From: an uncultured Gammaproteobacteria bacterium
GTDB lineage: Bacteria > Patescibacteriota > Patescibacteriia > Magasanikbacterales > GWA2-37-8
Length of the DNA stretch: 64,000 bases
Direction: 5' to 3'
Assembly: GCA_964596525.1 (NCBI GenBank)
Contig: CAZQUL010000001.1
Span: forward strand, 396,830 to 460,829
Shown here: positions 20,857 to 49,839 of the stretch, in pieces
Numbering within the stretch: position 1 is the stretch's first letter
Layout: each line of letters begins with the position of its first letter
The notes under the pieces: generated by a model
The model's database searches: none
Told to the model about the DNA's origin: nothing
Seen by the model: only the letters and a program-made list of their open reading frames with translations
Translations under genes and position numbers: made by a program

Positions 20857-21081
20857 ATGCGTTCATTGCTTAGCTACGTTCTATGTCTTTTTACCGTGGC
20901 GCCGATCGCGCAGTGCGGCGGCTATCAGATTTCCGTCAGCTCCGCAGCAGGAGAAGCTGTGCGCAGGGACGACGGGGATAAAACGCCGATCGCGACCGGC
21001 AAAGTACTGCCGCCCGGTACCTGCCCCGAAGCAGGTGGCTGCCAGAACGGCGGCCAGGTTCCGGTGGCGACAACGGAATAG
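20857..21081 (+). CDS. small secreted Cys/Gly-rich protein
   Basis: GGAGG SD then ATG. Signal peptide MRSLLSYVLCLFTVAPIAQC. 5 Cys in 74 aa. Confidence 0.4.
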   Translation: MRSLLSYVLCLFTVAPIAQCGGYQISVSSAAGEAVRRDDGDKTPIATGKVLPPGTCPEAGGCQNGGQVPVATTE

Positions 21082-21107
21082 CGCTCCTAACCTTTTGAGG
21101 TACAAAC

Positions 21108-21494
21108 ATGGTTGCCCTCGTAACCATCCTCTTATCCGTAGCGCCACCGTTTTATCCTGACTTGCCACGCGCACCGTTTGTTGCATCCGCGCCAGGCAAA
21201 GATGCAGCTCTGCTTCTGGATAAAGAAAACCGCGTCTATGTCGGAGGAGATTCGACCAGCCGCTGGTATTTTCTGGATTGTCAGCAGAGTGAGCAGGTGC
21301 GGGTCATACAGGGAGCTCCCGCACCGTCCAACGGTTTTCAGATCGAATGCAACCGCCGCGTAGTGGTAATCGTAGATTGTCCGGTCGATTCTCTCCCGGA
21401 AAATTTAACGGGCCCGTCGGGCCTCTACGATCAGCATGATAGTACCGTCTGGTTTTGGTGCACGCCTAAGCATTTGCAGCTTGCACCCAGGTAG
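21108..21494 (+). CDS. small secreted protein (4 Cys)
   Basis: Hydrophobic N-terminus. Followed by an intrinsic terminator. Confidence 0.4.
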   Translation: MVALVTILLSVAPPFYPDLPRAPFVASAPGKDAALLLDKENRVYVGGDSTSRWYFLDCQQSEQVRVIQGAPAPSNGFQIECNRRVVVIVDCPVDSLPENLTGPSGLYDQHDSTVWFWCTPKHLQLAPR

Positions 21495-21668: not shown

Positions 21669-22040
21669 TTAGGTGGCCGAGACGAATTTTGCGGTCGATC
21701 TTTTACGCTGGCGCCGGGCCAGCATGAGGTGCAAACCGATCAGGCAGCCGAGCGCGGCTGTGGAAGTGCCGCCGGTCTGAGAGCGAGTCCGTCCCATCGT
21801 GCAGCTCGGCGATTCCGGAGCTGAAGGGGGCGGCTCCTCCGATCCGGGAGGGATCCTCATGGTCACATTGGTTTTGGTGTCGTGGAGAAGTATGCCGCCG
21901 CTCGGAAGCGGATAGCCCACGATTTCTCCTCCCTGGACGATGATAGGATCGCTGGTTTTCGGCGCGGCTTCATTGGCGCATGCCGGTGGAGAAACATGCA
22001 GGAAAAAAGAACAAAGTCCCCATAGAAGCGTGTGTCTCAT
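21669..22040 (-). CDS. secreted protein with a C-terminal hydrophobic segment plus basic tail
   Basis: Signal peptide, Pro/Ser-rich middle. C-terminus ...PESPSC...AALGCLIGLHLMLARRQRKRS resembles a sortase/exosortase-type anchor, but without LPXTG. Confidence 0.4.
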   Translation of the reverse strand: MRHTLLWGLCSFFLHVSPPACANEAAPKTSDPIIVQGGEIVGYPLPSGGILLHDTKTNVTMRIPPGSEEPPPSAPESPSCTMGRTRSQTGGTSTAALGCLIGLHLMLARRQRKRSTAKFVSAT

Positions 22041-22347
22041 TGCTGGCTATTCCTCCTTCAACGCGGTGCAATCTATCAAGTCTTTGCACCCATGTCAATG
22101 TTTTAATTGGTAGCTTCGTATCAAAGGGCAGTGTCCTGTTCAACGCTGTGCGTGCTTGCGAACACGGCAGGTGGCATTATAGAGATCAAATCTAGAACCG
22201 ATGATGAATCTTGGAAGCGGTATGATGGATGCGACAAGAACTGACGTGGCTTGCATGCACGACTAAAGCGCAGGTATAACCCAGGCAAAATTGGCGGTAA
22301 TTGTTCGAGCGAAATGATCGATGGGTAGCTTGTATGAGCACGGAGTT

Positions 22348-34522: not shown

Positions 34523-34878
34523 TTGACATTGCGAACTTTTTTTAGTAGTCTATTCTTATCAGCGTCACACCTCGTATCATGAGGAATCTCACAAAGAACG
34601 CTCGGGAAAGAAATTCTCACGAAAAGTAGACTCCCGCGGGATGGCCCGTCAGCGCCGTAACCAAGCAAACGTTGAGATGGTACCGTCGGTCCCGCGAACG
34701 CGGGGAAGACTCTCGACACCCTAATCAGGTGTTTTTATTTTTTATCTGGTGTCATTGCGAGCGAAGCGAACCAATCTCCCGAATTTACCTCGGGCTCTAC
34801 TAACAAAGTTGGTTCTGAAAACGAAGGGATTGCTTCGTCAGTCGTCTAACTCCTTCCTCGCAATGACAGAAAAAACGT
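34523..34878 (+). promoter_or_regulatory. ileS promoter (TTGACA, 17 nt, TAGTCT) and an approximately 330-nt leader with a T-box-like GAGAUGGUACCGUCGG element, carrying MITE copy 1
   Basis: TGGTACCG at 34677-34684 resembles the T-box core (AGGGUGGNACCGCG). Small hairpin with a GUAUCAU loop at 34563-34577. Terminator-like hairpin with T-run at 34717-34741. Confidence 0.3.
34751..34867 (+). mobile_element. 117-nt palindromic MITE/RPE-like element, copy 1 (ileS 5' leader)
   Basis: Terminal inverted repeats GTCATTGCGAG / CTCGCAATGAC. Nested inverted repeat CGAAGC.AATC.CC ... GGGATTGCTTCG. About 85% identical to copy 2. Confidence 0.7.
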
Positions 34879-37800
34879 ATGCTCTACAACGCCAATTCTG
34901 AGGAGAAAAAAATCATCGAATTTTGGAAAAAGAACAACATATTTGAACGCTCAGTTACAGAACGCCCCACCGAAAAACCGTACGCGTTTTACGACGGCCC
35001 GCCCTTTGCGACCGGCACGCCGCACTACGGCCACTTGGTCGGGAGCACGATGAAAGATATCGTGCCGCGTTTTTGGACCATGAAAGGGTATCGTGTCGAG
35101 CGCGTCTGGGGTTGGGACTGCCACGGGCTTCCCATCGAAAACATCGTCGAGAAAGAGCTCGGTATTTCGACCAAAAAAGAACTTGAAGAAAAAGTCGGCG
35201 TCGCGAAATTCAATCAACTCTGCCGCGAGCGGGTTTTGGGATACGTTGATGAGTGGCGCACGGTCATCGAGCGCCTCGGCCGCTGGGTGGATATGGACCA
35301 TGCCTATCGCACCATGGACCGCTCATACATGGAATCGGTGTGGTGGGTGTTTAAACAGCTCTTCGACAAAGGCTATTTGTACGAGAGTTTCCGCTCGATG
35401 CATATCTGCCCGCGCTGCGAAACGACGCTCAGCCAATCCGAAGTGACGGAGGGGTATAAGGAGGTGAAAGATATTTCGGTCGTCGCGAAATTCAAGATCA
35501 CGAATGCGAAAGAAAAGCTCGGACTCGATGGTGATGTGTACGCGCTCGCGTGGACGACGACGCCGTGGACGTTGCCGGGGAATGTGGCATTGGCGGTTGG
35601 GGCTGATCTCGACTACGTCATTGCGAAGTCTTTTTCCAGTGTCATTGCGAGCGAAGCGAAGCAATCCCCCGAATCCACCTCGGGCTCTGTTAGCACAGTT
35701 GGTTCTGAAAACGAAGGGATTGCTTCGTCCTCCGCTACGCTCCGTCCTCGCAATGACGGTGTTTATTATGTCGTTGCCAAAGAACGAGCTGAGACTGTTT
35801 TTAAGGGTCAAGAATATGAACTCGTGAAAGAAATCAAAGGCTCTGAACTCGTCGGCCTCACCTACGAACCGCTCTTCCCGTACTACAAAAATACCCCGAA
35901 CGCCTTCCGTATCGTCACGTCCGATCATGTCACGACCGACGCCGGTACGGGCATCGTGCACATCGCCCCGGCGTTCGGTGAAGACGACTTTAAAGTCGGC
36001 GTACGTGAGAATATTCCGCTCGTGCAGCATGTCGGTATGGACGGTCGCTTCAAACCCGAACTGACGGATTTCGCGGGCGAACCGGTTAAGCCGCGCGGCG
36101 AAGATAAAGAACGTCTGGCGACGGATATCAAGATCTTGCGCTATCTCCAAGAACACGGCACGTTCTTCAGTAAAGAAAACGTCGTGCATACCTACCCGCA
36201 CTGCTGGCGCTGCGATACGCCACTCCTTAACTACGCCACGTCGTCGTGGTTCGTGAACGTGACGAAACTCAAGCCAAAACTCCTCGAGACGGCCACGAAT
36301 ATTTCCTGGTCGCCCGAGAACATGAAAGAAGGTCGTTTCGGCACGTGGCTCGAAGGCGCGCGCGACTGGAGTATTTCGCGCCAGCGGTTTTGGGCGTCGG
36401 TCATTCCGGTGTGGCGCTGCGATAAAGACGAAAAACACCAGGATGTCATCGGCGCGGTCGCGGAACTCGAAGTAAAATACGGCCACAACATCGACGACCT
36501 GCACAAAGACATCGTCGATCGGGTTACGTATCCGTGTGCCAGCTGCAACGGCACGATGAAGCGCATCCCCGACGTGCTCGATACGTGGTTCGATTCCGGC
36601 TCGATGCCGTACGCGCAAGTACATTATCCGTTTCAGAACAAAGAAAAATTCGAGCAGAGTTTCCCAGCCGAGTATATTGGCGAAGGACAGGACCAAACCC
36701 GTGCCTGGTTTTACTACCTGCATGTGTTGGCCGGCGCGATCATGGATAAGCACGCCTTCAACCACGTGATCGTCAACGGCATTGTGCTCGCCGAAGACGG
36801 CAAAAAAATGAGCAAGAAACTCAAGAACTATCCTGATCCGTCAGTCGTCATGGAAAAATATGGCGCTGACGCACTCCGGTTCTACATGGCCTCATCGCCC
36901 GTTGTCCATGCGGAAAATCTCAACTTCTCGGAAGACGGCGTGAAAGAAATTTTCGGCAAGCTCGTCAACACGCTCTGGAACGTCTACGAATTTTACGAGC
37001 TCGCGGCCGATGTCGATCATCACGGACCCGAACATAAATCGAGTCACGTGCTCGACAAATGGATTCTCGCTAAACTCCACGCGACGATGAAAGAAACGAC
37101 CGAACATCTCGAAGGCTACCGTTTGGCTGAAGCTGCGCGACCGATTCTGGCGTTCGTCACCGAACTCTCGCAGTGGTACGTGCGCCGGAGCCGCGAACGG
37201 TTGAAAGGCGATGATACAAAAGACAAGCAGGGCGCGCTCCACACGCTCCGTATCGTACTCCTCACGACCTCAAAACTTCTCGCGCCGTTTGCGCCGTTCG
37301 TCGCGGAGACGATTTATCAAAAGTTAAAGACAGCGAACGACGCGGATAGCGTGCATCTGTGCGAATGGCCCCATCACAAAGACGTTGAAAAAGAAGACGG
37401 TATCCTTGAGCGCATGGAAGAAGTCCGCAAAATCGTCGAGCTTGGTCTTGCTGTGCGCGCCGAGAAGAAATTGAAAGTCCGCCAGCCGCTCGCCGAACTC
37501 AAGATGAATCGCAAGCAACTTGCGCAGGATTATTTGGATATCGTCGCCGACGAACTGAATGTGAAAAACGTCGCGTTTGCCGAAGCAGTGACTACTGATG
37601 CGTGGGCCGAGAAAACTGAAGGCGAAACGACCGTGTGGCTCGATACGCGTGTGACGGAAGAACTGAAAGAAGAAGGCATGGTGCGTGATCTCGTGCGCGC
37701 GGTCAATCAGCTGCGCAAGGATCAGGGGCTCACGCCGAAAGATCGGATTGCGGTGGTATATGCCGGCAGTGAAACCATGGACGTATTGATTAAAAAATAT

Positions 37801-38006: not shown

Positions 38007-38723
38007 CTAGCGGATAGGCTCGTGTTCGTACCCGTATCCATATCCGGCATCGATCCCTTTGCCCAGTTCGTTTACCGCGCGTTTATAGGCCTCACGTTCG
38101 GGCCTTGCTGCCGCAGGTTTCGTTCCGGTTGGGAGCGGTGCGGCGCGTTGCTTATGCTCCTCATTGAGCTTACGCTCAGCTTCAAATGCCCGTCTCAGTA
38201 TTCTGTTCACACCATCGGTATCCGGAACGCGCGCCCTAAGAAAACGCGTCATGATATCGCTCGGGTCTTCCGGCACTGGTTGTGGGGCTAGCGGTTTTAC
38301 TGCCGACTCTGGATTTGGGGTATTCGCTGGAATGACACCGGGACGAGGTTCAGTGCGAGGCACTGATGCGACCATCTTGGGCTGACGGGCATAGTTTGGC
38401 TTGGGCGTGCTTGGTAGCGGATCGGCTGGCCGGATAGGCGGCCATTTGTCAGGTGCACGAGTGATGACAAGCTTTTCCTGCGTCGACTCCGGAGCCTCTA
38501 GAGAAAAACGACAGATATCAGGCGACGCAGTCTCACGGGAGAAGAGCTGCTCTTCGCACCACGGGGCCGACGGAGGGGTTGATGTGTTGCTAGAGCAAAG
38601 AGCATTCGTGATTGGTCGAGAGAAATGCGAGGTCACGTCCAGGTTCGTTGGGTTGCTTTTCGTAAACAGGAGGGCAACCAAGCTCGCAAAGCCAAACATG
38701 AGCCAACGGCTTTTCTTCGTCAT
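38007..38723 (-). CDS. secreted proline-rich protein
   Basis: Start MTKKSRWLMFGFASLVALLF (signal peptide). P/A-rich low-complexity body. C-terminal GYGYGYEHEP. Confidence 0.45.
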   Translation of the reverse strand: MTKKSRWLMFGFASLVALLFTKSNPTNLDVTSHFSRPITNALCSSNTSTPPSAPWCEEQLFSRETASPDICRFSLEAPESTQEKLVITRAPDKWPPIRPADPLPSTPKPNYARQPKMVASVPRTEPRPGVIPANTPNPESAVKPLAPQPVPEDPSDIMTRFLRARVPDTDGVNRILRRAFEAERKLNEEHKQRAAPLPTGTKPAAARPEREAYKRAVNELGKGIDAGYGYGYEHEPIR

Positions 38724-38850
38724 GGGAACCTCTCGGTTGGAAGTATAGTCTAAAGTATTGAAGTGCGCTGTCAAGGGGATGTGATTTTTAAATTTTAAAT
38801 TAAAAATCTCCGTTCACGTCAGTGCGCGGAGATCATTTTTTCAACGATTG

Positions 38851-39319
38851 ATTTTACAAGCACTCGATGTATTTGTTTTCGACGTCGCACTTTCCACTCG
38901 CGCAGTCGGTGTCTTTATAGCACTCGGCACCCGTTCCGCAACGCGGACACGCCGTTTCCCCGCCGCAGTCCACATCAAGCTCGTCAGCCGTTCGGGATCT
39001 GTCCGTGCACAACGGCGTGCAGATGGAATTTGGGGATATTAGGCCGGTTCAACAGTCTGCCATGAGAACGCACGTACTGCCAGTTTCAGTTGGGGCAAAC
39101 CGGTTTTCGGTTTTACTGCATGTCAACCATAAGGAGCGCAGGGATGAAGAAAATATCAAGGTGAGCGAACGGTGTTTCATGAAGTGCCTCCGAATGTTGT
39201 ATGGGTGCTGTAAAGATATTTTGGCAAATAAAAATCCTGTTGAACTGGATCGATACGGATTTTGGAAAGATAACCCATGTACCAACCATAGACAACATCA
39301 TTCTTGTCAATAAAAACAA
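38851..39319 (-). pseudogene. probable decayed gene (three consecutive reading-frame fragments, last one Cys-rich)
   Basis: Minus-strand ORFs 39113..39319 and 39049..39285, plus an M-less frame 38851..39057 (..CTPLCTDRSRTADELDVDCGGETACPRCGTGAECYKDTDCASGKCDVENKYIECL), abut in three frames. Confidence 0.3.
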
Positions 39320-39375
39320 ATTCCTCGTCTGGGACGAGGAAGCGGTTGGTGAATGTCAGTGAATGGATGAATTTG

Positions 39376-39741
39376 CTATAGCCCGGACGGCGCGATCGCC
39401 TCGACCTGCACGCAGCTCAGGCTCTGGCGCTGCTCCACCGGAACGAGCTCGAGGAGCGTCTGCGTGCTCGAGAGCATCCGCGGGATGCAGCTCCAGCCGT
39501 GGGGGTCGGTCTTCGTGATGCTCTGCGGGGCAGTGCAGAATCCGCCGAATGCCTTGGCACACTCCTTCGCGCAGTCTGCGAAGGTGTGCGTGAGATAGGC
39601 GTCCCGCTCGTCGAACGTGCACGGGTCGATGTTGAAGTTGCCGGCATCGCAGGCCGTTCCGATAAAGGCTAGGAAACCGGCAGTGGCGAGCAGGGCGCGC
39701 TTGCGAATGGTCTGGCACAGGGCATCAAGTAGACGGTTCAT
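39376..39741 (-). CDS. cysteine-rich secreted protein, family member A (8 Cys)
   Basis: Signal peptide LLATAGFLAFIGTAC. Module FADCAKECAKAFGGFC...GWSCIP shared with the next two genes. Confidence 0.6.
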   Translation of the reverse strand: MNRLLDALCQTIRKRALLATAGFLAFIGTACDAGNFNIDPCTFDERDAYLTHTFADCAKECAKAFGGFCTAPQSITKTDPHGWSCIPRMLSSTQTLLELVPVEQRQSLSCVQVEAIAPSGL

Positions 39742-39910
39742 GGGTTCCCTCCTGGAGTTTCAAGATACGAGATAGCGCTCGGAGCTTCCCGAGTAAAGCA
39801 CGGATCGTTATTTTTGTAAAGGATAGACGTTAAAAAGTCACTTGCGACCCTTAAAAACAAGGCACCCCCGAACTCAGAGAGTGTCGGGGGGTTAGGGGGC
39901 CGTAGCCCGG

Positions 39911-40525
39911 TTACTTCATGGTGGTCACCGTGACCTGCGTGGCCTGGATGCAGCTTCCGTTCCAGCCGAGCTTGGCCGGGAGGAAGTTCTCCGCGGGCAG
40001 GTAGGAGGCAGCGCCGTTGAAGGGTAGGCAGATCCAGGCGTTATCCTGGTGCCGGCTCTCCTTGAGAGCGACGCAGTAGCCGCCCTGCTCCTTCTCGCAG
40101 GTCGCGACGCACGAATCGAAGTTCTGGTTCGCGTACATCGGCTGCGGAATGCAGTTCGAGATCTCGATCGCGGTCATGTAGCCTTCGCCCTTGCAGGCGA
40201 GGCGCTCCTCCGCGGTGAGCTTCTCCTGGACCGACTGCCCGGCGCGATCCTTCTGGATGCAGCGCCAGACCTTCAGGTCATCCGTCGTCATGCCGGCAGC
40301 CGCCTGCTCTTTGGTCGGCACCGCCATATAGGCAGTGGTGGCGCACCAGCCGCCAACCGTACCGACGCCGCAGGTGTCAGTGCACTCCTTCTTGGTCTGC
40401 GTGCCGGCGACCGTGCAGGTGTTGGCCGCGTAGTCGTAGTCGACGATGATGCAGCCCGAGCCGAAGATGGTGAAGAGGGCGACGATGAAGGCACGACGGG
40501 CGAACTGGGAGATGATCGTGGTCAT
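39911..40525 (-). CDS. cysteine-rich secreted lipoprotein, family member B (two modules)
   Basis: Lipobox FGSGC. Modules CTDTCGVGTVGGWC and FDSCVATCEKEQGGYC...AWICLP. Confidence 0.6.
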   Translation of the reverse strand: MTTIISQFARRAFIVALFTIFGSGCIIVDYDYAANTCTVAGTQTKKECTDTCGVGTVGGWCATTAYMAVPTKEQAAAGMTTDDLKVWRCIQKDRAGQSVQEKLTAEERLACKGEGYMTAIEISNCIPQPMYANQNFDSCVATCEKEQGGYCVALKESRHQDNAWICLPFNGAASYLPAENFLPAKLGWNGSCIQATQVTVTTMK

Positions 40526-40774
40526 GGGCGGACTCCTTGGTGTGGTACCAACCTGGGAAAGGTCGGCGGTAATGAACAGTAGTTGCTTGTCAAGCTATTC
40601 TCGGGATAACCGATCTGTTAGCTTAACAAGTAAGTATACCATATTTTTACGCCTTTGTCAAGACTATAATGGAGCTTATGTTAGCCAAAAAAACTTATGG
40701 TATCGATTTGGCTAAAACAAGCGTTCTAAACTAAAAACCGGTCCAAAAGGCCGGTTTACAGGGGGTTAGGAAGG

Positions 40775-40933
40775 TTATTCTTCGGGCATGAGCGGTAATC
40801 CGCAAAAACCATTCTGGTAGATACCACCTTGTTTTTCACAGCTTTGCTGTGCAACTTGGTCCGGATTGCCGCATGGACCGCTGAAAATCGCAAGACTCGC
40901 CAGTAAAAACCATCTTAAACGATGTTTCCACAT
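40775..40933 (-). CDS. cysteine-rich secreted mini-protein, family member C (52 aa)
   Basis: GGAGGT SD, 5 nt, ATG. MWKHRLRWFLLASLAIFSGPCGNPDQVAQQSCEKQGGIYQNGFCGLPLMPEE. Same C-E-K-x-GG-x-C module. Below the ORF-track length cut-off. Confidence 0.5.
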   Translation of the reverse strand: MWKHRLRWFLLASLAIFSGPCGNPDQVAQQSCEKQGGIYQNGFCGLPLMPEE

Positions 40934-41031
40934 AGGTTACCTCCAGGCCGCATTGTACCATATGTTTCGGCGGCCTCAACGAACTCTTGTCCTGAGGTGC
41001 CTATTCTGTTAAGGTAATCCAGTATTACTAA

Positions 41032-41709
41032 TTGTTTATCATGAAAAAAATCATCATCTTGCTCGGCTTGCCGGGTTCTGGCAAAGGTACGCAGGCTAAA
41101 CGCCTTGCAGAACGTTATGGGTATACGCATATCTCAACCGGGGACTTACTGCGGTCGTTGGTTCAAAACCCAACTCATTCACCGGCAGAACAGGAAGCGC
41201 TGGAACGTATCGCCAAAGGCGAGCTTGTCGACGATAATTTCATTTTCGATCTGGCGTTTGCCGAAATCGAACGGGTGATGGCAGTGGGCAGCGGCGTAGT
41301 TCTGGACGGCGCCGTGCGCACGCTGAAACAGGCCGAAGGGTACCAGAATTTTTTTGCCAGCAAAGGATGGGATGCAGAAACAATTGTCATTGAAATCGCG
41401 CTCACCGAAGAGGTGGCCCGCGTGCGCGTTAGTTCGCGCAAGATTTGCACGGTATGCAATATGATTTTCCCGAATCCGGCTTATCCGCGCGTCGATACGG
41501 TGTGTCCGGCGTGCGGCGGAGCGCTTGCTGCGCGAGCTGATGATCGTGAAGATGTGTTGGAGAATCGTTTTGTGACGCAAGGTGAAAAGAATCTTGCCCC
41601 GATCCGTAAATTCTATAACTCTCTTGGACTGCTTTCAGTCATCAATGGCTTGCAGAGCTTTGATGATGTTGAGCGAGATATTGTTGCGCTGCTCGAAGCC
41701 GCCTCTTAA
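41032..41709 (+). CDS. adk: adenylate kinase (zinc-lid type)
   Basis: GLPGSGKGTQA P-loop. LID with CTVCNM...CPACGG. Confidence 0.85.
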   Translation: MFIMKKIIILLGLPGSGKGTQAKRLAERYGYTHISTGDLLRSLVQNPTHSPAEQEALERIAKGELVDDNFIFDLAFAEIERVMAVGSGVVLDGAVRTLKQAEGYQNFFASKGWDAETIVIEIALTEEVARVRVSSRKICTVCNMIFPNPAYPRVDTVCPACGGALAARADDREDVLENRFVTQGEKNLAPIRKFYNSLGLLSVINGLQSFDDVERDIVALLEAAS

Positions 41710-42123: not shown

Positions 42124-42311
42124 TCTTGATTGTCCTGTGTAAACGCGGTGATTGCATTTCTGCAGCATGTCCGTAGTTTCCCAGCGAAACACTATTTTTG
42201 TCAAGGAACATTCTTAAAGATAAGTTCCCTGCTATTTCCTGTAGCTGTGCGTTGCTCAGAGGGTTGAGATGCCTTATAGTACCGGTACTTTTGTTGCCAG
42301 ATCTTACCGAT

Positions 42312-43466
42312 ATGAACCTTTTTGAATACGAAGGAAAAAATCTTTTTGAAAAGTATGGTATCCGCGTTCCGCGCCGCGTGCTCGTTCGCTCTCTTAACGA
42401 GATTGAACTCGCGTATCGTTCCATTGGTGTTTCGGATGTTGTGGTTAAGGCGCAGATCCTTGCTGGCAAGCGCGGCAAAAGCGGTGGAGTGAAATTTTGC
42501 TCGACGCTACAAGAGGTGTGCGAAGCGGTTAGGATGCTCCTTGGTTCGGCAGTGCTCGGCTATAAGGTAAAGGCCGTGCTTATCGAAGAAAAACTCGCGA
42601 TTGCCGAAGAGCACTATCTCTCAATCAGTTACGATACTGCTGTGCGCGCTCCGCTTTTTGTATACAGTTCAGTCGGTGGCATGGAGATTGAAGACGCGCC
42701 AGAGACAGCACTTGTCCGCCGCCTTTGTGATGTGCGCAGCATTCACGCGCCTGGTAGCCAGCCTTTTGCAGCAGAAGCGTGGAAGTGCTTTTTGGCCGAG
42801 GATGCGCGCGTTGTCGAAATTAATCCGCTCGTTAAAACTACAAATGGTGAGTGGTATGCCGCAGATGCCAAAGTCGCGCTCGATGATGATGCTTTTTTCC
42901 GCCACCCGGAATGGAAAGACGTTGAGCCCCGCACCAGCCTGCCACGCCCTCCTACGGAACGCGAAAAGTCTGCTGCCACAATAGATGAAGGCGAGGCATA
43001 CTACCGCGGCACGGCGAGCAAATATATCGAGCTCGACGGCGATATTGCCATTCTTTTTTCCGGCGGTGGGGCTTCGATTGCGAACATGGACGCGCTTATA
43101 AAAGCGGGTGGAAAGCCAGCTAACTATACGGAATATTCCGGTAATCCGCCGCGTGAGAAAGTGGCTGCGCTTGCCCATGTTGTGCTGTCAAAGCCAGGCC
43201 TCAAAGGTCTTTGGATCGCGGGTGGCGTGGCGAATTTTACAGATGTCGCCGAGACGTTCCATGGTATCGTCGACACGCTCGACAACGTAAAGCCATCGTA
43301 CCCCATCGTCGTACGCCGCGCCGGACCGAACGAAGCGGAAGGGATGCGGATTATGAATGAATGCGCCGTGCGTAACGGATTGAGCATGAAGTTGTTTGGT
43401 AAAGAAACATCGATGAGCGCAACGGCTGAAGTGCTGATGGAGATGGTAAAAGAACAGCGTGCATAA
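42312..43466 (+). CDS. sucC: succinyl-CoA synthetase beta subunit-like (ATP-grasp) protein; candidate citryl-CoA synthetase large subunit
   Basis: Start MNLFEYEGKNLFEKYGIRVP. KAQILAGKRGKSGGVK. Full SucC architecture. Confidence 0.8.
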   Translation: MNLFEYEGKNLFEKYGIRVPRRVLVRSLNEIELAYRSIGVSDVVVKAQILAGKRGKSGGVKFCSTLQEVCEAVRMLLGSAVLGYKVKAVLIEEKLAIAEEHYLSISYDTAVRAPLFVYSSVGGMEIEDAPETALVRRLCDVRSIHAPGSQPFAAEAWKCFLAEDARVVEINPLVKTTNGEWYAADAKVALDDDAFFRHPEWKDVEPRTSLPRPPTEREKSAATIDEGEAYYRGTASKYIELDGDIAILFSGGGASIANMDALIKAGGKPANYTEYSGNPPREKVAALAHVVLSKPGLKGLWIAGGVANFTDVAETFHGIVDTLDNVKPSYPIVVRRAGPNEAEGMRIMNECAVRNGLSMKLFGKETSMSATAEVLMEMVKEQRA

Positions 43467-44283
43467 TTTTTTGCGTACTTCTAATCTTAAAATTCACATA
43501 GCTATGTTGCCCGCCCTTACTCTCGCCACTTCTTTAACTGGCACTCCGCTTCTTTGGAGTGCAGCCGATCGTCTCCGCCACCTCCACATCATCGGTAAAA
43601 GCGGTTCAGGCAAATCGACGCTCCTCGCCCACCTCGTGCGGCAAGATATCGAGTGCGGTACGGGTGTGCTTGTACTCGATCCGCACGGCGATCTTCTCGA
43701 TATGATCGAGAAAGAATTATCTCCCGATCATGCCGGAAAAGTGAGTCTTATCCGCATCATCGATGCGAATACGGCCGAAGCGCAGTGCCAGGCGATTGAT
43801 CTTGCTTCGATTCTGAATGGCGGAAAAACAACTCTTGTTAGTCTTGGCAAAGGACGTATCGGCGAAGAGCTTAGCACTCGCCTAGGGCGAGAACTTCTTG
43901 CTCGGTTTGTGGCCGCAATGCTCGCCCGGCGCGGAAAAGAAGAGGTTTCTCCCTGCGCGCTTTACCTCGACGAAGCACCCACCTGGTGGCACCAGGATCT
44001 TGAACCACTCCTCACTCAAGCGCGGAGCTCTGGCGTGAGTGTCACGCTCGCACATCAGTACCTTGAGCAGTTTGACGAGCCGACTACTGATCTTATTCTT
44101 GGTAATGTCGGTTTGATGGCTCTGTTTAGGATTGGCATGTATGATGCAGAACGTCTCGAACCCGAGGTAGCGCCTGCGTTCAACAGAGAAACACTCACGA
44201 CTCTGCCCGAACGCCATCTCATCATCAAGAACGCTTCGACGCGCGAAGTGCACGAAGGTGTTCTTGTGGCCTCCAAATTATAA
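43459..44283 (+). CDS. compact HerA/FtsK/TrwB-like P-loop ATPase
   Basis: HLHIIGKSGSGKSTLL (Walker A) followed by VLVLDPHGD. LYLDEAP (Walker B). QARSSGVSVTLAHQ matches the family motif. Confidence 0.5.
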   Translation: MHNFLRTSNLKIHIAMLPALTLATSLTGTPLLWSAADRLRHLHIIGKSGSGKSTLLAHLVRQDIECGTGVLVLDPHGDLLDMIEKELSPDHAGKVSLIRIIDANTAEAQCQAIDLASILNGGKTTLVSLGKGRIGEELSTRLGRELLARFVAAMLARRGKEEVSPCALYLDEAPTWWHQDLEPLLTQARSSGVSVTLAHQYLEQFDEPTTDLILGNVGLMALFRIGMYDAERLEPEVAPAFNRETLTTLPERHLIIKNASTREVHEGVLVASKL

Positions 44284-44292
44284 CTTATCTCT

Positions 44293-44745
44293 ATGTCCTC
44301 GTACTCCAAAAACCGCCACACCAATATTCCGGCAGCGTACGTCGTTTTCATGCATAATGATGACGTGCTTTTGCTGCGCCGTTACAACACCGGGTACCAA
44401 GATGGCAAGTATTCGCTTGTTGCCGGACATGTCGAAGCCGAAGAAAGTTTTAGCGCTGCAGCAGTGCGCGAAGCGCTCGAAGAGGCCGGAGTAGGCGTGG
44501 CCCCCGAAGATCTCGAATTTGCGCATATGACGCATCGTCGCGCCGAGGACAGCGAGCGCGTGGATGTGTTTTTCGTTGTCAGGAAATGGCACGGTGAGCT
44601 TACTAACCGCGAACCGGAAAAGTGCGATGACTTGTCGTGGTTCAATATCCGCAGCCTGCCGGACAATCTCATTCCCTATGTCCGCCAAGCTCTCGAAGCG
44701 ATCCGTGACAAAAAAGCATATAGTGAGTGGGGGTGGAAGAAGTAA
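44293..44745 (+). CDS. NUDIX hydrolase
   Basis: Nudix box GHVEAEESFSAAAVREALEEAGV. Confidence 0.8.
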   Translation: MSSYSKNRHTNIPAAYVVFMHNDDVLLLRRYNTGYQDGKYSLVAGHVEAEESFSAAAVREALEEAGVGVAPEDLEFAHMTHRRAEDSERVDVFFVVRKWHGELTNREPEKCDDLSWFNIRSLPDNLIPYVRQALEAIRDKKAYSEWGWKK

Positions 44746-44760
44746 TTTTTTTGGAGGAAT

Positions 44761-45654
44761 ATGGGCATCTTACTCTCGAAAAACATGACGGTTCTCGTGC
44801 AGGGCATGACCGGTAAAGAAGGCCAGAAAAATACGCGGGCAATGCTTGACTACCATACGAACGTTGTCGCTGGTGTTACGCCCGGTAAGGGTGGGCAAGA
44901 GGTGGAGAGCAAGCCGGTGTATAATTCCGTTCAGCAGGCGGTCGATAACCATGGATTATTTTCTGCCTCTGTCATTGTAGTACCCCCCTTTGCCGCCAAA
45001 GCGGCGATACTCGAAGCTATTAATGCCGGTATCCCGTTCATCAATATTTTGGTTGAACGTATTCCGCTTCAAGATGCAGCTTACTGCCTCGCCGCTGCGC
45101 GCGAACAACGTATCCGTCTCCTTGGCCCCAGTTCGCTCGGCGTGCTCGTTCCGGGCGTTGGGCGTCTCGGCGTTGTCGGAGGTCCGCTCGTCAACGAAAT
45201 TTTTACGCCCGGATCGGTTGGCATTATTTCGCGCTCTGGCGGTATGACAAACGAGTTGTCATGGCAGATGCGACGTGCGGGTTTTGGCCAGAGCGCGGCG
45301 GTGCATGTCGGGGGCGATCTTCTTATGGGTACAACATATGCCGAACTCCTTGAGCTCTTTGAAGCTGATCCGGCTACCAAGGTCGTTGCCATCTTCGGCG
45401 AGCATGGCGGGAGTTATGAATTTGAAATCGTCGAGCTTGTTAAGCCAAAAAAATTCACCAAACCACTCGCGGTATATATCGGCGGTAAATTCGCGAGTAT
45501 GTTTCCCGAAGGGATGACTGTTGGCCACGCGGGTGCGATCGTTGGGCGCGGGCAGGGCGCGAACGAGAAAGAACAAGCACTTAAAGAAGTAGGGGTGATG
45601 ATCGCAGAAAGGTATGAGGAGTTAGTGGAATTGGTGCGGCCTTACGCACAGTAA
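44761..45654 (+). CDS. sucD: succinyl-CoA synthetase alpha subunit-like (CoA-binding) protein; candidate citryl-CoA synthetase small subunit
   Basis: VLVQGMTGKEGQ. Phospho-His loop MTVGHAGAIV. Confidence 0.8.
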   Translation: MGILLSKNMTVLVQGMTGKEGQKNTRAMLDYHTNVVAGVTPGKGGQEVESKPVYNSVQQAVDNHGLFSASVIVVPPFAAKAAILEAINAGIPFINILVERIPLQDAAYCLAAAREQRIRLLGPSSLGVLVPGVGRLGVVGGPLVNEIFTPGSVGIISRSGGMTNELSWQMRRAGFGQSAAVHVGGDLLMGTTYAELLELFEADPATKVVAIFGEHGGSYEFEIVELVKPKKFTKPLAVYIGGKFASMFPEGMTVGHAGAIVGRGQGANEKEQALKEVGVMIAERYEELVELVRPYAQ

Positions 45655-45665
45655 TATCTAAATAT

Positions 45666-46106
45666 ATGAAAGCAGGTGTTGACCATGTTGGTGTAGCAGT
45701 AGCATTTTTTTGCCATGATGGTGCCGGTAATTTTTTGATGCACAAACGCAGTGAACGGTGCCGTGATGAACAAGGAACATGGGATATAGGCGGAGGAAAG
45801 CTCGAGTACGGAGAAACGATTGACGAGGCTGTCATGCGTGAACTTGCAGAAGAGTATGGTTGTGTGGGTAGTATCGAAGAACGCTTACCGCCGAATACCT
45901 ATCTACGTGTCGATGGCAACGAACGACGTCATTGGGTAATCATTCCGCACATCGTGCGCGTCAAGCGAGAAGATGCTAAACTGAACGATCCAGAGAGTAT
46001 GACCGAAATGGCCTGGTTTAAACTCGACTTTTTGCCCGAACCGCTCCATTCCGGAGTAAAGTCCGATATCGAGCGCTATGCGGCCTCTTTGCAAAAGTAT
46101 TGCTAA
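45666..46106 (+). CDS. NUDIX hydrolase (second copy)
   Basis: Nudix box GGGKLEYGETIDEAVMRELAEEYG. Confidence 0.8.
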   Translation: MKAGVDHVGVAVAFFCHDGAGNFLMHKRSERCRDEQGTWDIGGGKLEYGETIDEAVMRELAEEYGCVGSIEERLPPNTYLRVDGNERRHWVIIPHIVRVKREDAKLNDPESMTEMAWFKLDFLPEPLHSGVKSDIERYAASLQKYC

Positions 46107-46858
46107 GCGTTCCTCGTATGCACTTCACTACCGCTCTCTCCACTATCAAAGACGGCCGCGAAATCATCCGCGGCCTGCCGCTCGAAGAGCTTGTTAAAAC
46201 CAGAACGTTTCTCGAGAACGCGGTTTTTCTCATCCGCGGCACGTTTCCGGCTGCTGCCGAACTCAAACTCCTCAACATGGTTTTTTCGGCGGCTATTGAT
46301 CATGGCGTGGGTGCGCCCTCAACGACTGTAGCTCGCATCGCTGCTTCCACCAATTCAACCACTTCTAACCTGCACGCCATACTCGCGGCCGGTATTCTTA
46401 CTATGGGTGATCAGCATGGCGGAGCGATAGAAACCGCTGCCCGCATTTTTCTCGAACTCGCCGACCAGACCGACGACGCGCTTCGGTCGTGGCTTTCCGA
46501 CATGAAATTTATCAAGATGAAAGTTCCAGGGTTTGGCCATCGGGTTCTCGCTACTGATCACCGCGCCGAGTTGCTTCTTGCCCAAGCGGATGAGCTTGGT
46601 CTGTCTGGTAAAGCCTGTCGCGTAGCAGAGCGCATCCATAAACTCCTCAACGAATCATCGTCAAAACCGCTCCCCCTCAACATTGATGGCGCTATGGCGG
46701 CGGTGCTGGCAGATCTTGGGTTTGCACCCGAGTGTATGAAGGGCCTATTTATTTTTGCGCGCCTCCCCGGGCTTATCGCGCACTGTGTGGAGCAGGTCGG
46801 CAGCGGCGAAGGTGTAAAACGTCTTTCTTTGGACGAAGAGATATATACTGGACCGTAG
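46100..46858 (+). CDS. short citrate-synthase-family protein (citryl-CoA lyase-like, about 250 aa)
   Basis: Citrate synthase signatures: MGDQHGGAIE (HGG loop), GFGHRVL..DHRAE (G[FY]GHRV...DPR), NIDGAMAAVL, ARLPGLIAHCVEQ. Lacks the N-terminal approximately 120 aa of full citrate synthases. Confidence 0.65.
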   Translation: MLSVPRMHFTTALSTIKDGREIIRGLPLEELVKTRTFLENAVFLIRGTFPAAAELKLLNMVFSAAIDHGVGAPSTTVARIAASTNSTTSNLHAILAAGILTMGDQHGGAIETAARIFLELADQTDDALRSWLSDMKFIKMKVPGFGHRVLATDHRAELLLAQADELGLSGKACRVAERIHKLLNESSSKPLPLNIDGAMAAVLADLGFAPECMKGLFIFARLPGLIAHCVEQVGSGEGVKRLSLDEEIYTGP

Positions 46859-49419: not shown

Positions 49420-49839
49420 ATGAAATCCTTACTTTTCCACTGCAGAAATTACCGTACGCGCGTCGGGGAACTCGCTGATCGTCCAGCAACGATCTGTCCT
49501 GAACCGGTAGGTGAGCGCGAACGGTTCTGCCACGACTGCGTCGTTGCTCTCATTACGGTCGAGCGGGGCGATGTTGTTGACGAAGTTGCTGAAAAAATGG
49601 CCCGCGAGATAGAAAAAATGGCCCGTGACGTGGGGCGAACAAAAATCGTTTTGCTGCCCTTTGCCCACCTATCGAGTTCGCTCGCCGATTCTACCACCGG
49701 TATCGCCGCCATCAAACGCATTGCCGAACATGTATCTAGTGCCGCGCTTGATGTAGAACGTGGGCATTTCGGATCGCACAAAGAACTCCTTATCGATCTC
49801 TACGGGCACCCCGGCAATACGCGCTTCCGTGAATTCTAA
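49420..49839 (+). CDS. free-standing archaeal-type threonyl-tRNA synthetase editing-domain homologue (tRNA-Thr_ED / DTD-like fold)
   Basis: MKSLLFHCRNYRTRV..., CVVALITVERGDVV, KIVLLPFAHLSSSLAD and GHFGSHKELLIDLYGHPG align with the archaeal ThrRS editing-domain pattern (M.LLLIHSDY.EY...vLvafvsVEkgDe...rivlYPyAHLSs.La...FGwyK...GHP). Alignment made from memory. Confidence 0.5.
   Translation: MKSLLFHCRNYRTRVGELADRPATICPEPVGERERFCHDCVVALITVERGDVVDEVAEKMAREIEKMARDVGRTKIVLLPFAHLSSSLADSTTGIAAIKRIAEHVSSAALDVERGHFGSHKELLIDLYGHPGNTRFREF

Follow-up and report, generated by a model that had tools for sequence, protein, structure and literature searches.

A family of predicted lipoproteins with a six-cysteine module and coding-sequence-bounded codon bias in a Magasanikbacterales genome

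Two adjacent minus-strand genes, p204 and p121, lie in a 64,000-nt stretch of contig CAZQUL010000001.1 (positions 396,830 to 460,829, analysed whole and hereafter called the window) from an uncultured bacterium of the Magasanikbacterales, within the Patescibacteria or Candidate Phyla Radiation (CPR). They encode proteins of 204 and 121 amino acids (aa) that are real paralogues and share a previously undescribed six-cysteine α+β domain, which occurs in two subtypes. The codon bias of both genes is extreme, is bounded by their coding sequences (CDSs), and is a property of the family to which they belong. On balance, we think it somewhat probable that these proteins are abundant, fast-evolving, disulfide-stabilised lipoproteins of the surface coat or interface of an ultra-small, probably host-dependent bacterium. 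CPR bacteria are mostly uncultured and thought to live attached to other cells, and the surface molecules with which they make contact are, to our knowledge, largely unknown. The p121/p204 family offers a concrete candidate for one of the major components of such a surface, which could be targeted in metaproteomes, by cryo-electron tomography and by antibody labelling.

A preliminary description of the locus had reported three minus-strand open reading frames (ORFs) of 121, 204 and 52 aa as paralogues joined by a short cysteine motif. The ORF coordinates proved exact (p121, 39376–39741; p204, 39911–40525; p52, 40775–40933), and the gaps between them, given as 170–250 nt, measure 169 and 249 nt. 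The paralogy stands for p121 and p204 and fails for p52, which belongs to another family. p121 aligns with the C-terminal part of p204 over 69 aa (BLASTP E=3e-6) and with its N-terminal part at E=0.012, and profiles of the two module subtypes, A and B, align with each other in hhalign at 97% probability (E=9e-11). The additional N-terminal copy that had been proposed for p204 is indeed present, giving this protein two copies. The motif itself is real, although it had been drawn too short: the conserved unit is a module of ~85–100 residues with the pattern C1…C2xxxC3…GG[FYW]C4…WxC5…C6.

All six cysteines are invariant in the eight modules that we aligned, with the spacing C-x(10-15)-C-x3-C-x(7-9)-C-x(14-28)-C-x(21-25)-C, a conserved glycine two residues before C4 and a tryptophan two residues before C5. 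The pattern is present in p121 and in both halves of p204 and absent from p52. Subtype A comprises the N-terminal module of p204 together with four proteins from related genomes (P0005, P0006, P0007 and P0008), and subtype B comprises p121, the C-terminal module of p204 and one further protein (P0011); the two differ in C1–C2 and C4–C5 spacing. p204 is an A–B fusion and p121 a single B. In p204, alignments and an AlphaFold2 (AF2) model delimit module 1 (aa 25–123; 40157–40453, minus strand), which reads C..C-x10-CxxxC-x8-C (GGWC)..WRC..C and then a strand, TAIEIS. Module 2 (aa 124–204; 39914–40156, minus strand), which reads NC..DSCVATCEKEQGGYC..AWICLP..GSC, is delimited by BLASTP against p121, by alignment and by hhalign. 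The mature module of p121 spans 39379–39651 (minus strand), and its AF2 model has the same topology as that of the p204 N-terminal module. Module 1 of p204 is nearest to P0005–P0008 (25–30% identity) and p121 to its orthologue P0011 (35% identity). The mature modules are net acidic, with charges of −2 to −6.

The family is small. Among ~15 billion sequences it amounts to seven proteins (p121, p204, P0005, P0006, P0007, P0008 and P0011), all of them small, with eight modules in total. In word-indexed searches, p204 alone retrieved only itself and alignment queries added only P0005 and P0006, while an exhaustive HMMER profile search of 1.84 billion representative proteins matched p204 (E=3.7e-51 over two stretches) and p121 (E=1.9e-21) and added P0007 (E=3e-16), P0008 (E=8e-12) and P0011 (E=1e-5). 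Recovery of the motif in a profile search, which the preliminary description had named as the test of the family, thus yielded independent members. Two scans of metagenome contigs with family alignments gave no confirmed locus, and a literature search found nothing on the six-cysteine family. The impression that the module matches no known domain was borne out: scans of the proteins against Pfam, NCBIfam, PHROGs and PADLOC gave nothing above threshold, and neither a sequence-profile search of the PDB nor Foldseek gave a match. The domain family is new, but its class, that of small cysteine-rich lipoproteins, is a familiar one, and in general terms it is one more orphan secreted family with seven sequences known.

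Two candidate relatives were considered and rejected. Giant surface proteins with DUF11-type repeats (P0009, P0010, P0012 and P0013) were matched by HMMER at E=1e-6 to 1e-4, summed over 5–10 repeats, through a recurring 'AGWSC…C' that fits the W-x-C part of the profile; the repeats have neither CxxxC nor GGxC, and we regard this partial match as spurious. DUF6723 (PF20484) was the best Pfam match of the second module of p204 (residues 133–177), but its score of 13.3 bits (E=0.07) falls short of the gathering threshold, 27 bits, and it matched only one of the eight modules.

That the shared motif is a chance pattern of cysteines and glycines in non-genic or unrelated ORFs is, for the family as a whole, hardly conceivable. 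For p121 and p204 this explanation is refuted by the significant pairwise and profile similarities above, and it also conflicts with their strong third-position periodicity, with the conservation of orthologues and with gene calls in independent assemblies (a Logan contig from an independent assembly carries gene calls for all three ORFs, p52 included). It holds for p52 only, whose resemblance to the module (CEKQGGIYQNGFC) is not significant: BLASTP against the module proteins gives E=0.05–0.06, and hhalign against the family profile 0.2% probability. p52 (minus strand) belongs to a different small family, one of signal-peptide proteins with the pattern C-E-x-x-G-x-x-[YF]-x-N-x-x-C-x-x-P-L, and is conserved as a neighbour: the relatives L002 (3933–4085, E=5e-6) and L053 (302–475, E=2e-4) each have an orthologue at this locus. 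Because these orthologues are syntenic, we take p52 to be a real gene; its G+C content at third codon positions (GC3), 0.41, is ordinary.

Both p204 and p121 are genuine genes, and each is transcribed on its own. Each is followed by an intrinsic terminator on the minus strand, a stem-loop and T-run at 39863–39883 after p204 and a 9-bp stem and T-run at 39321–39341 after p121, and a hairpin followed by a T-run can also be read 3′ of p52. A Shine-Dalgarno sequence precedes each of the three ORFs (AGGAGG, AAGGAG and GGAGGT). A repeat search found no cassette-like, phase-variation or diversity-generating-retroelement-like repeats; it did find one 39-nt remnant of homology common to p121 and p204, at the W-x-C region. 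The interval 38700–41100 contains no Rfam family, neither a riboswitch nor a selenocysteine insertion sequence (SECIS).

The most conspicuous property of the two genes is their codon usage. GC3 is 0.90 in p204 and 0.84 in p121, against a mean of 0.57 for the 45 long ORFs of the window (standard deviation 0.08, maximum 0.72), and no other 300-nt stretch of the 64 kb reaches a value of at least 0.80 at any codon position. GC3 jumps at the start codon and drops back at the stop codon, and the intergenic flanks are 35–48% GC. GAG, AAG and CAG account for 93–100% of their codon pairs in p204 and p121, compared with 23–50% in bulk genes; in the four-fold boxes, codons ending in C predominate, and A stands at only 3–5% of third positions. 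The bias recurs in the orthologues: GC3 is 0.93 in P0007, 0.81 in P0011 and 0.67 in P0008, and 0.68 and 0.69 in P0005 and P0006, compared with 0.50–0.51 for the isoleucyl-tRNA synthetase gene (ileS) of their own genomes.

Such values invite the explanation that p204 and p121 were recently acquired from a high-GC donor and that their GC3 is a donor signature not yet ameliorated. They lie 3–4 standard deviations above the genes of the window, the preferred codons (GAG, AAG, CAG, GCC, GGC and CCG) are like those of high-GC bacteria, G+C at second codon positions (GC2) is raised as well (0.49–0.50), and the gene content of the locus varies between relatives. We nevertheless consider a recent acquisition unlikely. 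The change in composition falls exactly on the start and stop codons, the DNA on either side is AT-rich, a host-type promoter is kept in five loci, and G+C at first codon positions is not raised (0.52–0.58). Moreover, the profile and word-indexed searches, and tblastn against phage and plasmid collections, gave no homologue from a phage, a plasmid or any organism of high GC, and none outside the clade among the 1.84 billion representatives and 5.8 billion clusters, although high-GC phyla are far better sampled than the CPR.

The comparison with related genomes bears on the same question. Orthologues occur after ileS in relatives whose isoleucyl-tRNA synthetase (IleRS) is only 77% identical to that of the window: P0005 is encoded by the gene right after ileS in L002, the relative with this value, and P0006 by a gene with the same synteny in L053. 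The next Candidatus Magasanikbacteria/Magasanikiibacteriota metagenome-assembled genomes share 59–61% IleRS identity with the window. Proteins of the family are only 17–57% identical, and since IleRS stands at 77%, we conclude that the family evolves fast. A tandem arrangement recurs in the L055/L054 locus, where the A gene for P0007 precedes the B gene for P0011 (L055, 313–717 and 884–1009; L054, 75–446), with AT-rich flanks and a terminator for each gene. Because the order of the tandem and its codon bias recur in another organism, they are not peculiar to the genome of the window. In relative synonymous codon usage, the window pair and the L055/L054 pair are correlated at r=0.91. The window pair is only 17–35% identical to its closest counterparts there, so that synonymous sites should be saturated, and across the family, with GC3 raised despite 17–57% protein identity, they should be at equilibrium. 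That GC3 is raised in several lineages is therefore better explained by a force still at work on these CDSs than by the remains of a donor signature. Copy number also varies among relatives, a check that had been called for: L002 and L053 each have one A gene with a single module, L055/L054 has two modules, and the window has three, in the order A–B fusion (p204) and then B (p121).

Upstream of p204, at 40633–40661 (minus strand), lies a promoter that matches the consensus at 11 of 12 positions: TTGACA, a 17-nt spacer and a TG-extended TATACT (TGgTATACT). No other perfect TTGACA-N14-TGNTATANT occurs in the window. A 42-nt block containing it (…TTCCGTnATAnTCTTGACAAAGnCATTAAAATGTGGTATAGT…) stands upstream of all five A-type genes with a mean pairwise identity of 76%, compared with 48% for the 5′ untranslated regions (UTRs) behind it and 25–57% for the A-type proteins; the promoter block is thus more conserved than the protein it serves. 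The p204 leader, a 5′ UTR of ~100 nt, carries a 12-bp stem-loop read from the sequence (CTTGTTAAGCTA…TAGCTTGACAAG; 40586–40630, minus strand), close to the inferred transcription start, which may be an mRNA-stabilising element. A hairpin occurs at the equivalent place in the orthologous leaders (L002, L053, L055 and L056), with weak covariation support, and the consensus fold of the 5′ UTRs is weak (−6.6 kcal/mol). The sole other near-consensus promoter of the window with a TG-extended −10 element and a 17-nt spacer (one mismatch) is at 22070–22098 (minus strand) and precedes an unannotated ORF of 123 aa (21669–22040, minus strand) without a Pfam match.

The conserved near-consensus promoter with its TG-extended −10 element, the leader hairpin and strong Shine-Dalgarno sequence, the separate terminators and the CDS-bounded codon bias are the sequence features that together suggest that few genes of the cell are expressed as strongly as p204 and p121. 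As context, the most highly expressed genes of other Patescibacteria include some for secreted proteins of unknown function (PMC10936435).

The earlier proposal that these are secreted, cysteine-rich and lipobox-bearing proteins is supported by their N-termini. In p204 the signal peptide (aa 1–24; 40454–40525, minus strand), recognised by its hydrophobic h-region, ends at the lipobox FGSG|C25, and in p121 (aa 1–30; 39652–39741, minus strand) it ends at IGTA|C31. With a PROSITE PS00013-type pattern, {DERK}6-[LIVMFWSTAG]2-[LIVMFYSTAGCQ]-[AGS]-C near residues 15–37, six of the seven family proteins are matched (p121, p204, P0005, P0006, P0007 and P0011); P0008 fails with a proline at −2, and p52 with a proline at −1. 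The first cysteine nevertheless follows directly after the hydrophobic segment in all seven, and each of them, like p52, has K/R followed by a 10-residue stretch with a mean Kyte-Doolittle hydropathy of 2.1–3.2. Seven of the eight modules directly follow the lipobox cysteine, the eighth being the internal second module of p204. These features argue that p121 and p204 would be lipidated and exposed at the surface.

AF2 modelling of single modules gave a mean predicted local distance difference test (pLDDT) score of 75.7 and a predicted template modelling (pTM) score of 0.65 for p121, and 81.8 and 0.69 for the N-terminal module of p204. The two models, seeded independently, agree in the order of elements, α-β-β-α-α-β: a helix with CxxxC, a strand with GG[FW]C, a strand with WxC, two short helices and a last strand after C6. 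Foldseek comparison of both models with the PDB (best E=2.3 and 3.8), and of the p121 model with BFVD, returned nothing with E<0.5. The six cysteines presumably form three disulfides.

This arrangement recalls the cysteine-stabilised αβ (CSαβ) or cis-defensins of insects and fungi, and the bacterial ones of myxobacteria and actinomycetes, which share the layout C…CxxxC…G-x-C in the N-terminal half. As in insect and fungal defensins, the CxxxC of the module sits on a predicted helix and its GG[FYW]C on the following strand, and its six cysteines could likewise make three disulfides. The modules might accordingly be divergent, enlarged CSαβ domains acting as antimicrobial or toxin-like effectors against other cells. 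The first four cysteines of all eight modules match the corresponding part, C-x(2,18)-C-x3-C-x(2,12)-C, of a bacterial-defensin pattern (C-X(2,18)-C-X3-C-X(2,12)-C-X(4,17)-C-X-C; PMC11561630), and hhalign against a small hand-made defensin alignment gave 36% probability (E=3.7e-4) over 28 columns covering C1–C4 only. Pfam defensin models were matched below threshold (Defensin_2, E=0.14; Defensin_like, E=0.76; Defensin-like, E=1.5).

We give this reading little credence. The full bacterial pattern matches none of the eight modules: the C-x-C that defines CSαβ defensins is absent from every one, C5 and C6 being 21–25 residues apart and on different predicted strands, and the modules lack the CSαβ fold, in which two disulfides fasten a helix to a β-hairpin. 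Defensins have 35–50 aa, usually carry a positive charge and are freely secreted, whereas the modules have 86–108 aa, with two helices more and one further strand, the third, are net acidic, and in seven of eight cases stand right after a lipobox cysteine. Neither Foldseek nor the PDB profile search retrieves a defensin, and no immunity or export genes adjoin the p121/p204 cluster. Because they lack C-x-C and are twice the size, acidic and lipid-anchored, we do not class the modules as defensins and treat the resemblance as a tentative lead; the toxin- or defensin-like reading suggested by the preliminary description is weak, given the net acidic charge, the missing C-x-C and the lipobox.

As surface lipoproteins, the proteins would work as follows. 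The precursors would be exported by the Sec pathway, the +1 cysteine would be lipidated and the signal peptide cut off by signal peptidase II, and three disulfides would then give small, acidic, rigid domains tethered to the membrane on its outer side. They would act through their exposed surface, by contact, adhesion or shielding, and not as enzymes. Small, rigid, disulfide-rich, membrane-tethered proteins with signs of strong constitutive expression could instead protect the envelope by inhibiting hydrolases such as lysozyme and proteases, in functional analogy to the small inhibitor lipoproteins MliC/PliC, which also contain disulfides, all the more as CPR cells live attached to hydrolase-secreting microbes. 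This too is improbable in our estimation: the modules resemble no known inhibitor family in sequence or fold, and fast divergence with variation in loop length is easier to reconcile with a surface that varies than with a conserved inhibitory site. None of the rival explanations is favoured by the tests that were run.

Several points weigh against abundant surface lipoproteins under codon selection. The raised GC2 means that composition alone leaves a foreign origin possible, and the neighbour of the P0008 gene has a higher GC3 (0.79) than P0008 itself. The sole tRNA-Glu of the window has the anticodon UUC while the bias favours GAG, so that the preference for GAG, AAG and CAG is not a classical signature of translational selection. 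Among the 30 window ORFs scanned against Pfam there is no ribosomal or other marker of highly expressed genes, and hence no reference for codon bias. Lgt and LspA had no match among the window ORFs scanned against Pfam, which are a part of the ORFs in 64 kb of a 1.34-Mb genome, and no dedicated search for them was made. The AF2 models were built on only eight sequences and were read for the order of their elements. Lastly, we infer the role in surface interface or adhesion from properties of the protein class only.

A bolder version of the surface-lipoprotein reading would have the module as a new disulfide-stapled fold, possibly an enlarged CSαβ offshoot, forming the dominant lipid-anchored surface layer of one Magasanikbacteria lineage for recognition of its host cell or attachment to it, with a GC3 shift produced by unusually strong selection at synonymous sites of a reduced genome, for translation or mRNA stability; we judge it decidedly unlikely in this full form. 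Codon selection in CPR genomes is generally regarded as weak. A codon bias so sharply bounded by CDSs and conserved is a clean natural case in which to ask whether strong synonymous-site selection operates in ultra-small genomes.

Other genes of the window had been associated with the family. A decayed neighbour was proposed downstream of p121, and the decay is real: at 38854–39180 (minus strand) a single frame with a signal-peptide-like start (MKHRSLTLIFSSSLRSLWLTC…) is broken by one in-frame TGA (39049–39051) and continues into a cysteine-rich tail. This pseudogene of a secreted protein is unrelated to the module and lacks the six-cysteine pattern; its N-terminus also fails the lipobox pattern, its tail (…CPRCGTGAECYKDTDCASGKC…) resembles the myxobacterial-type cysteine-rich repeat TIGR04201 below threshold only, and no SECIS-like Rfam match accompanies the TGA. 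The ORFs at 20857–21494, which had also been put forward as members, likewise fail the six-cysteine pattern and show no relation to the module on comparison. With both unrelated, the idea of an expanding and decaying family loses the examples on which it had been built. Between ileS and the lipoprotein cluster lies a proline-rich ORF of 255 aa (38007–38774, minus strand) with an N-terminal hydrophobic anchor, a promoter-like site at 38774–38747, no family match and no counterpart at the locus in L002 or L053.

Further features of the window are recorded for their own sake. A palindromic element of ~118 nt with terminal inverted repeats (GTCATTGCGAG…CTCGCAATGAC), resembling a miniature inverted-repeat transposable element or a repetitive extragenic palindrome, occurs at 35641–35758 (plus strand), 34751–34868 and, as a variant, 62841–62922. 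The first copy lies in frame within the essential IleRS gene and encodes …SVIASEAKQSPESTSGS…IASSSATLRPRNDG…, at a position where the IleRS of L002 has unrelated sequence; the near-identical second copy is just upstream of the ileS start codon. A free-standing 139-aa ORF at 49420–49839 (plus strand) has a precomputed match to PF08915 (tRNA-Thr_ED, the archaeal-type editing domain of threonyl-tRNA synthetase), unexpected in a bacterial CPR genome. At 42198–46858 (plus strand), genes matching ATP-grasp_2/Citrate_bind, CoA-ligase (Ligase_CoA/Succ_CoA_lig) and Citrate_synt form a run, with two NUDIX genes and a DUF87 ATPase lying between them; the run resembles a gene set of the ATP-citrate-lyase or citryl-CoA type and is noteworthy in a CPR genome of only 1.3 Mb. 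A TrmB Pfam match is also found among the neighbouring genes; together with the tRNA-Thr_ED and citrate-lyase-like matches it raised the possibility of an archaeal host, which was rejected once the closest relatives of the IleRS placed the window in the Magasanikbacteria.

Among known systems, the closest functional analogues of p121 and p204, on general knowledge, are abundant small envelope lipoproteins such as Braun's lipoprotein (Lpp) of E. coli and the variable surface lipoproteins of mycoplasmas, which are likewise small and lipobox-bearing. Neither kind is related to the six-cysteine module in sequence or structure, and Lpp is a cysteine-free coiled coil; the comparison is also limited in that abundance is only inferred for p121 and p204 and phase-variation repeats were not found. 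The analogy lies in gene organisation and in mode of evolution. Genes of the Lpp type, like p204 and p121, form monocistronic units driven by a very strong promoter, with a stabilising hairpin at the 5′ end and a terminator of their own, and the surface lipoproteins of bacteria with reduced genomes, like the p121/p204 family, evolve fast and vary in copy number.

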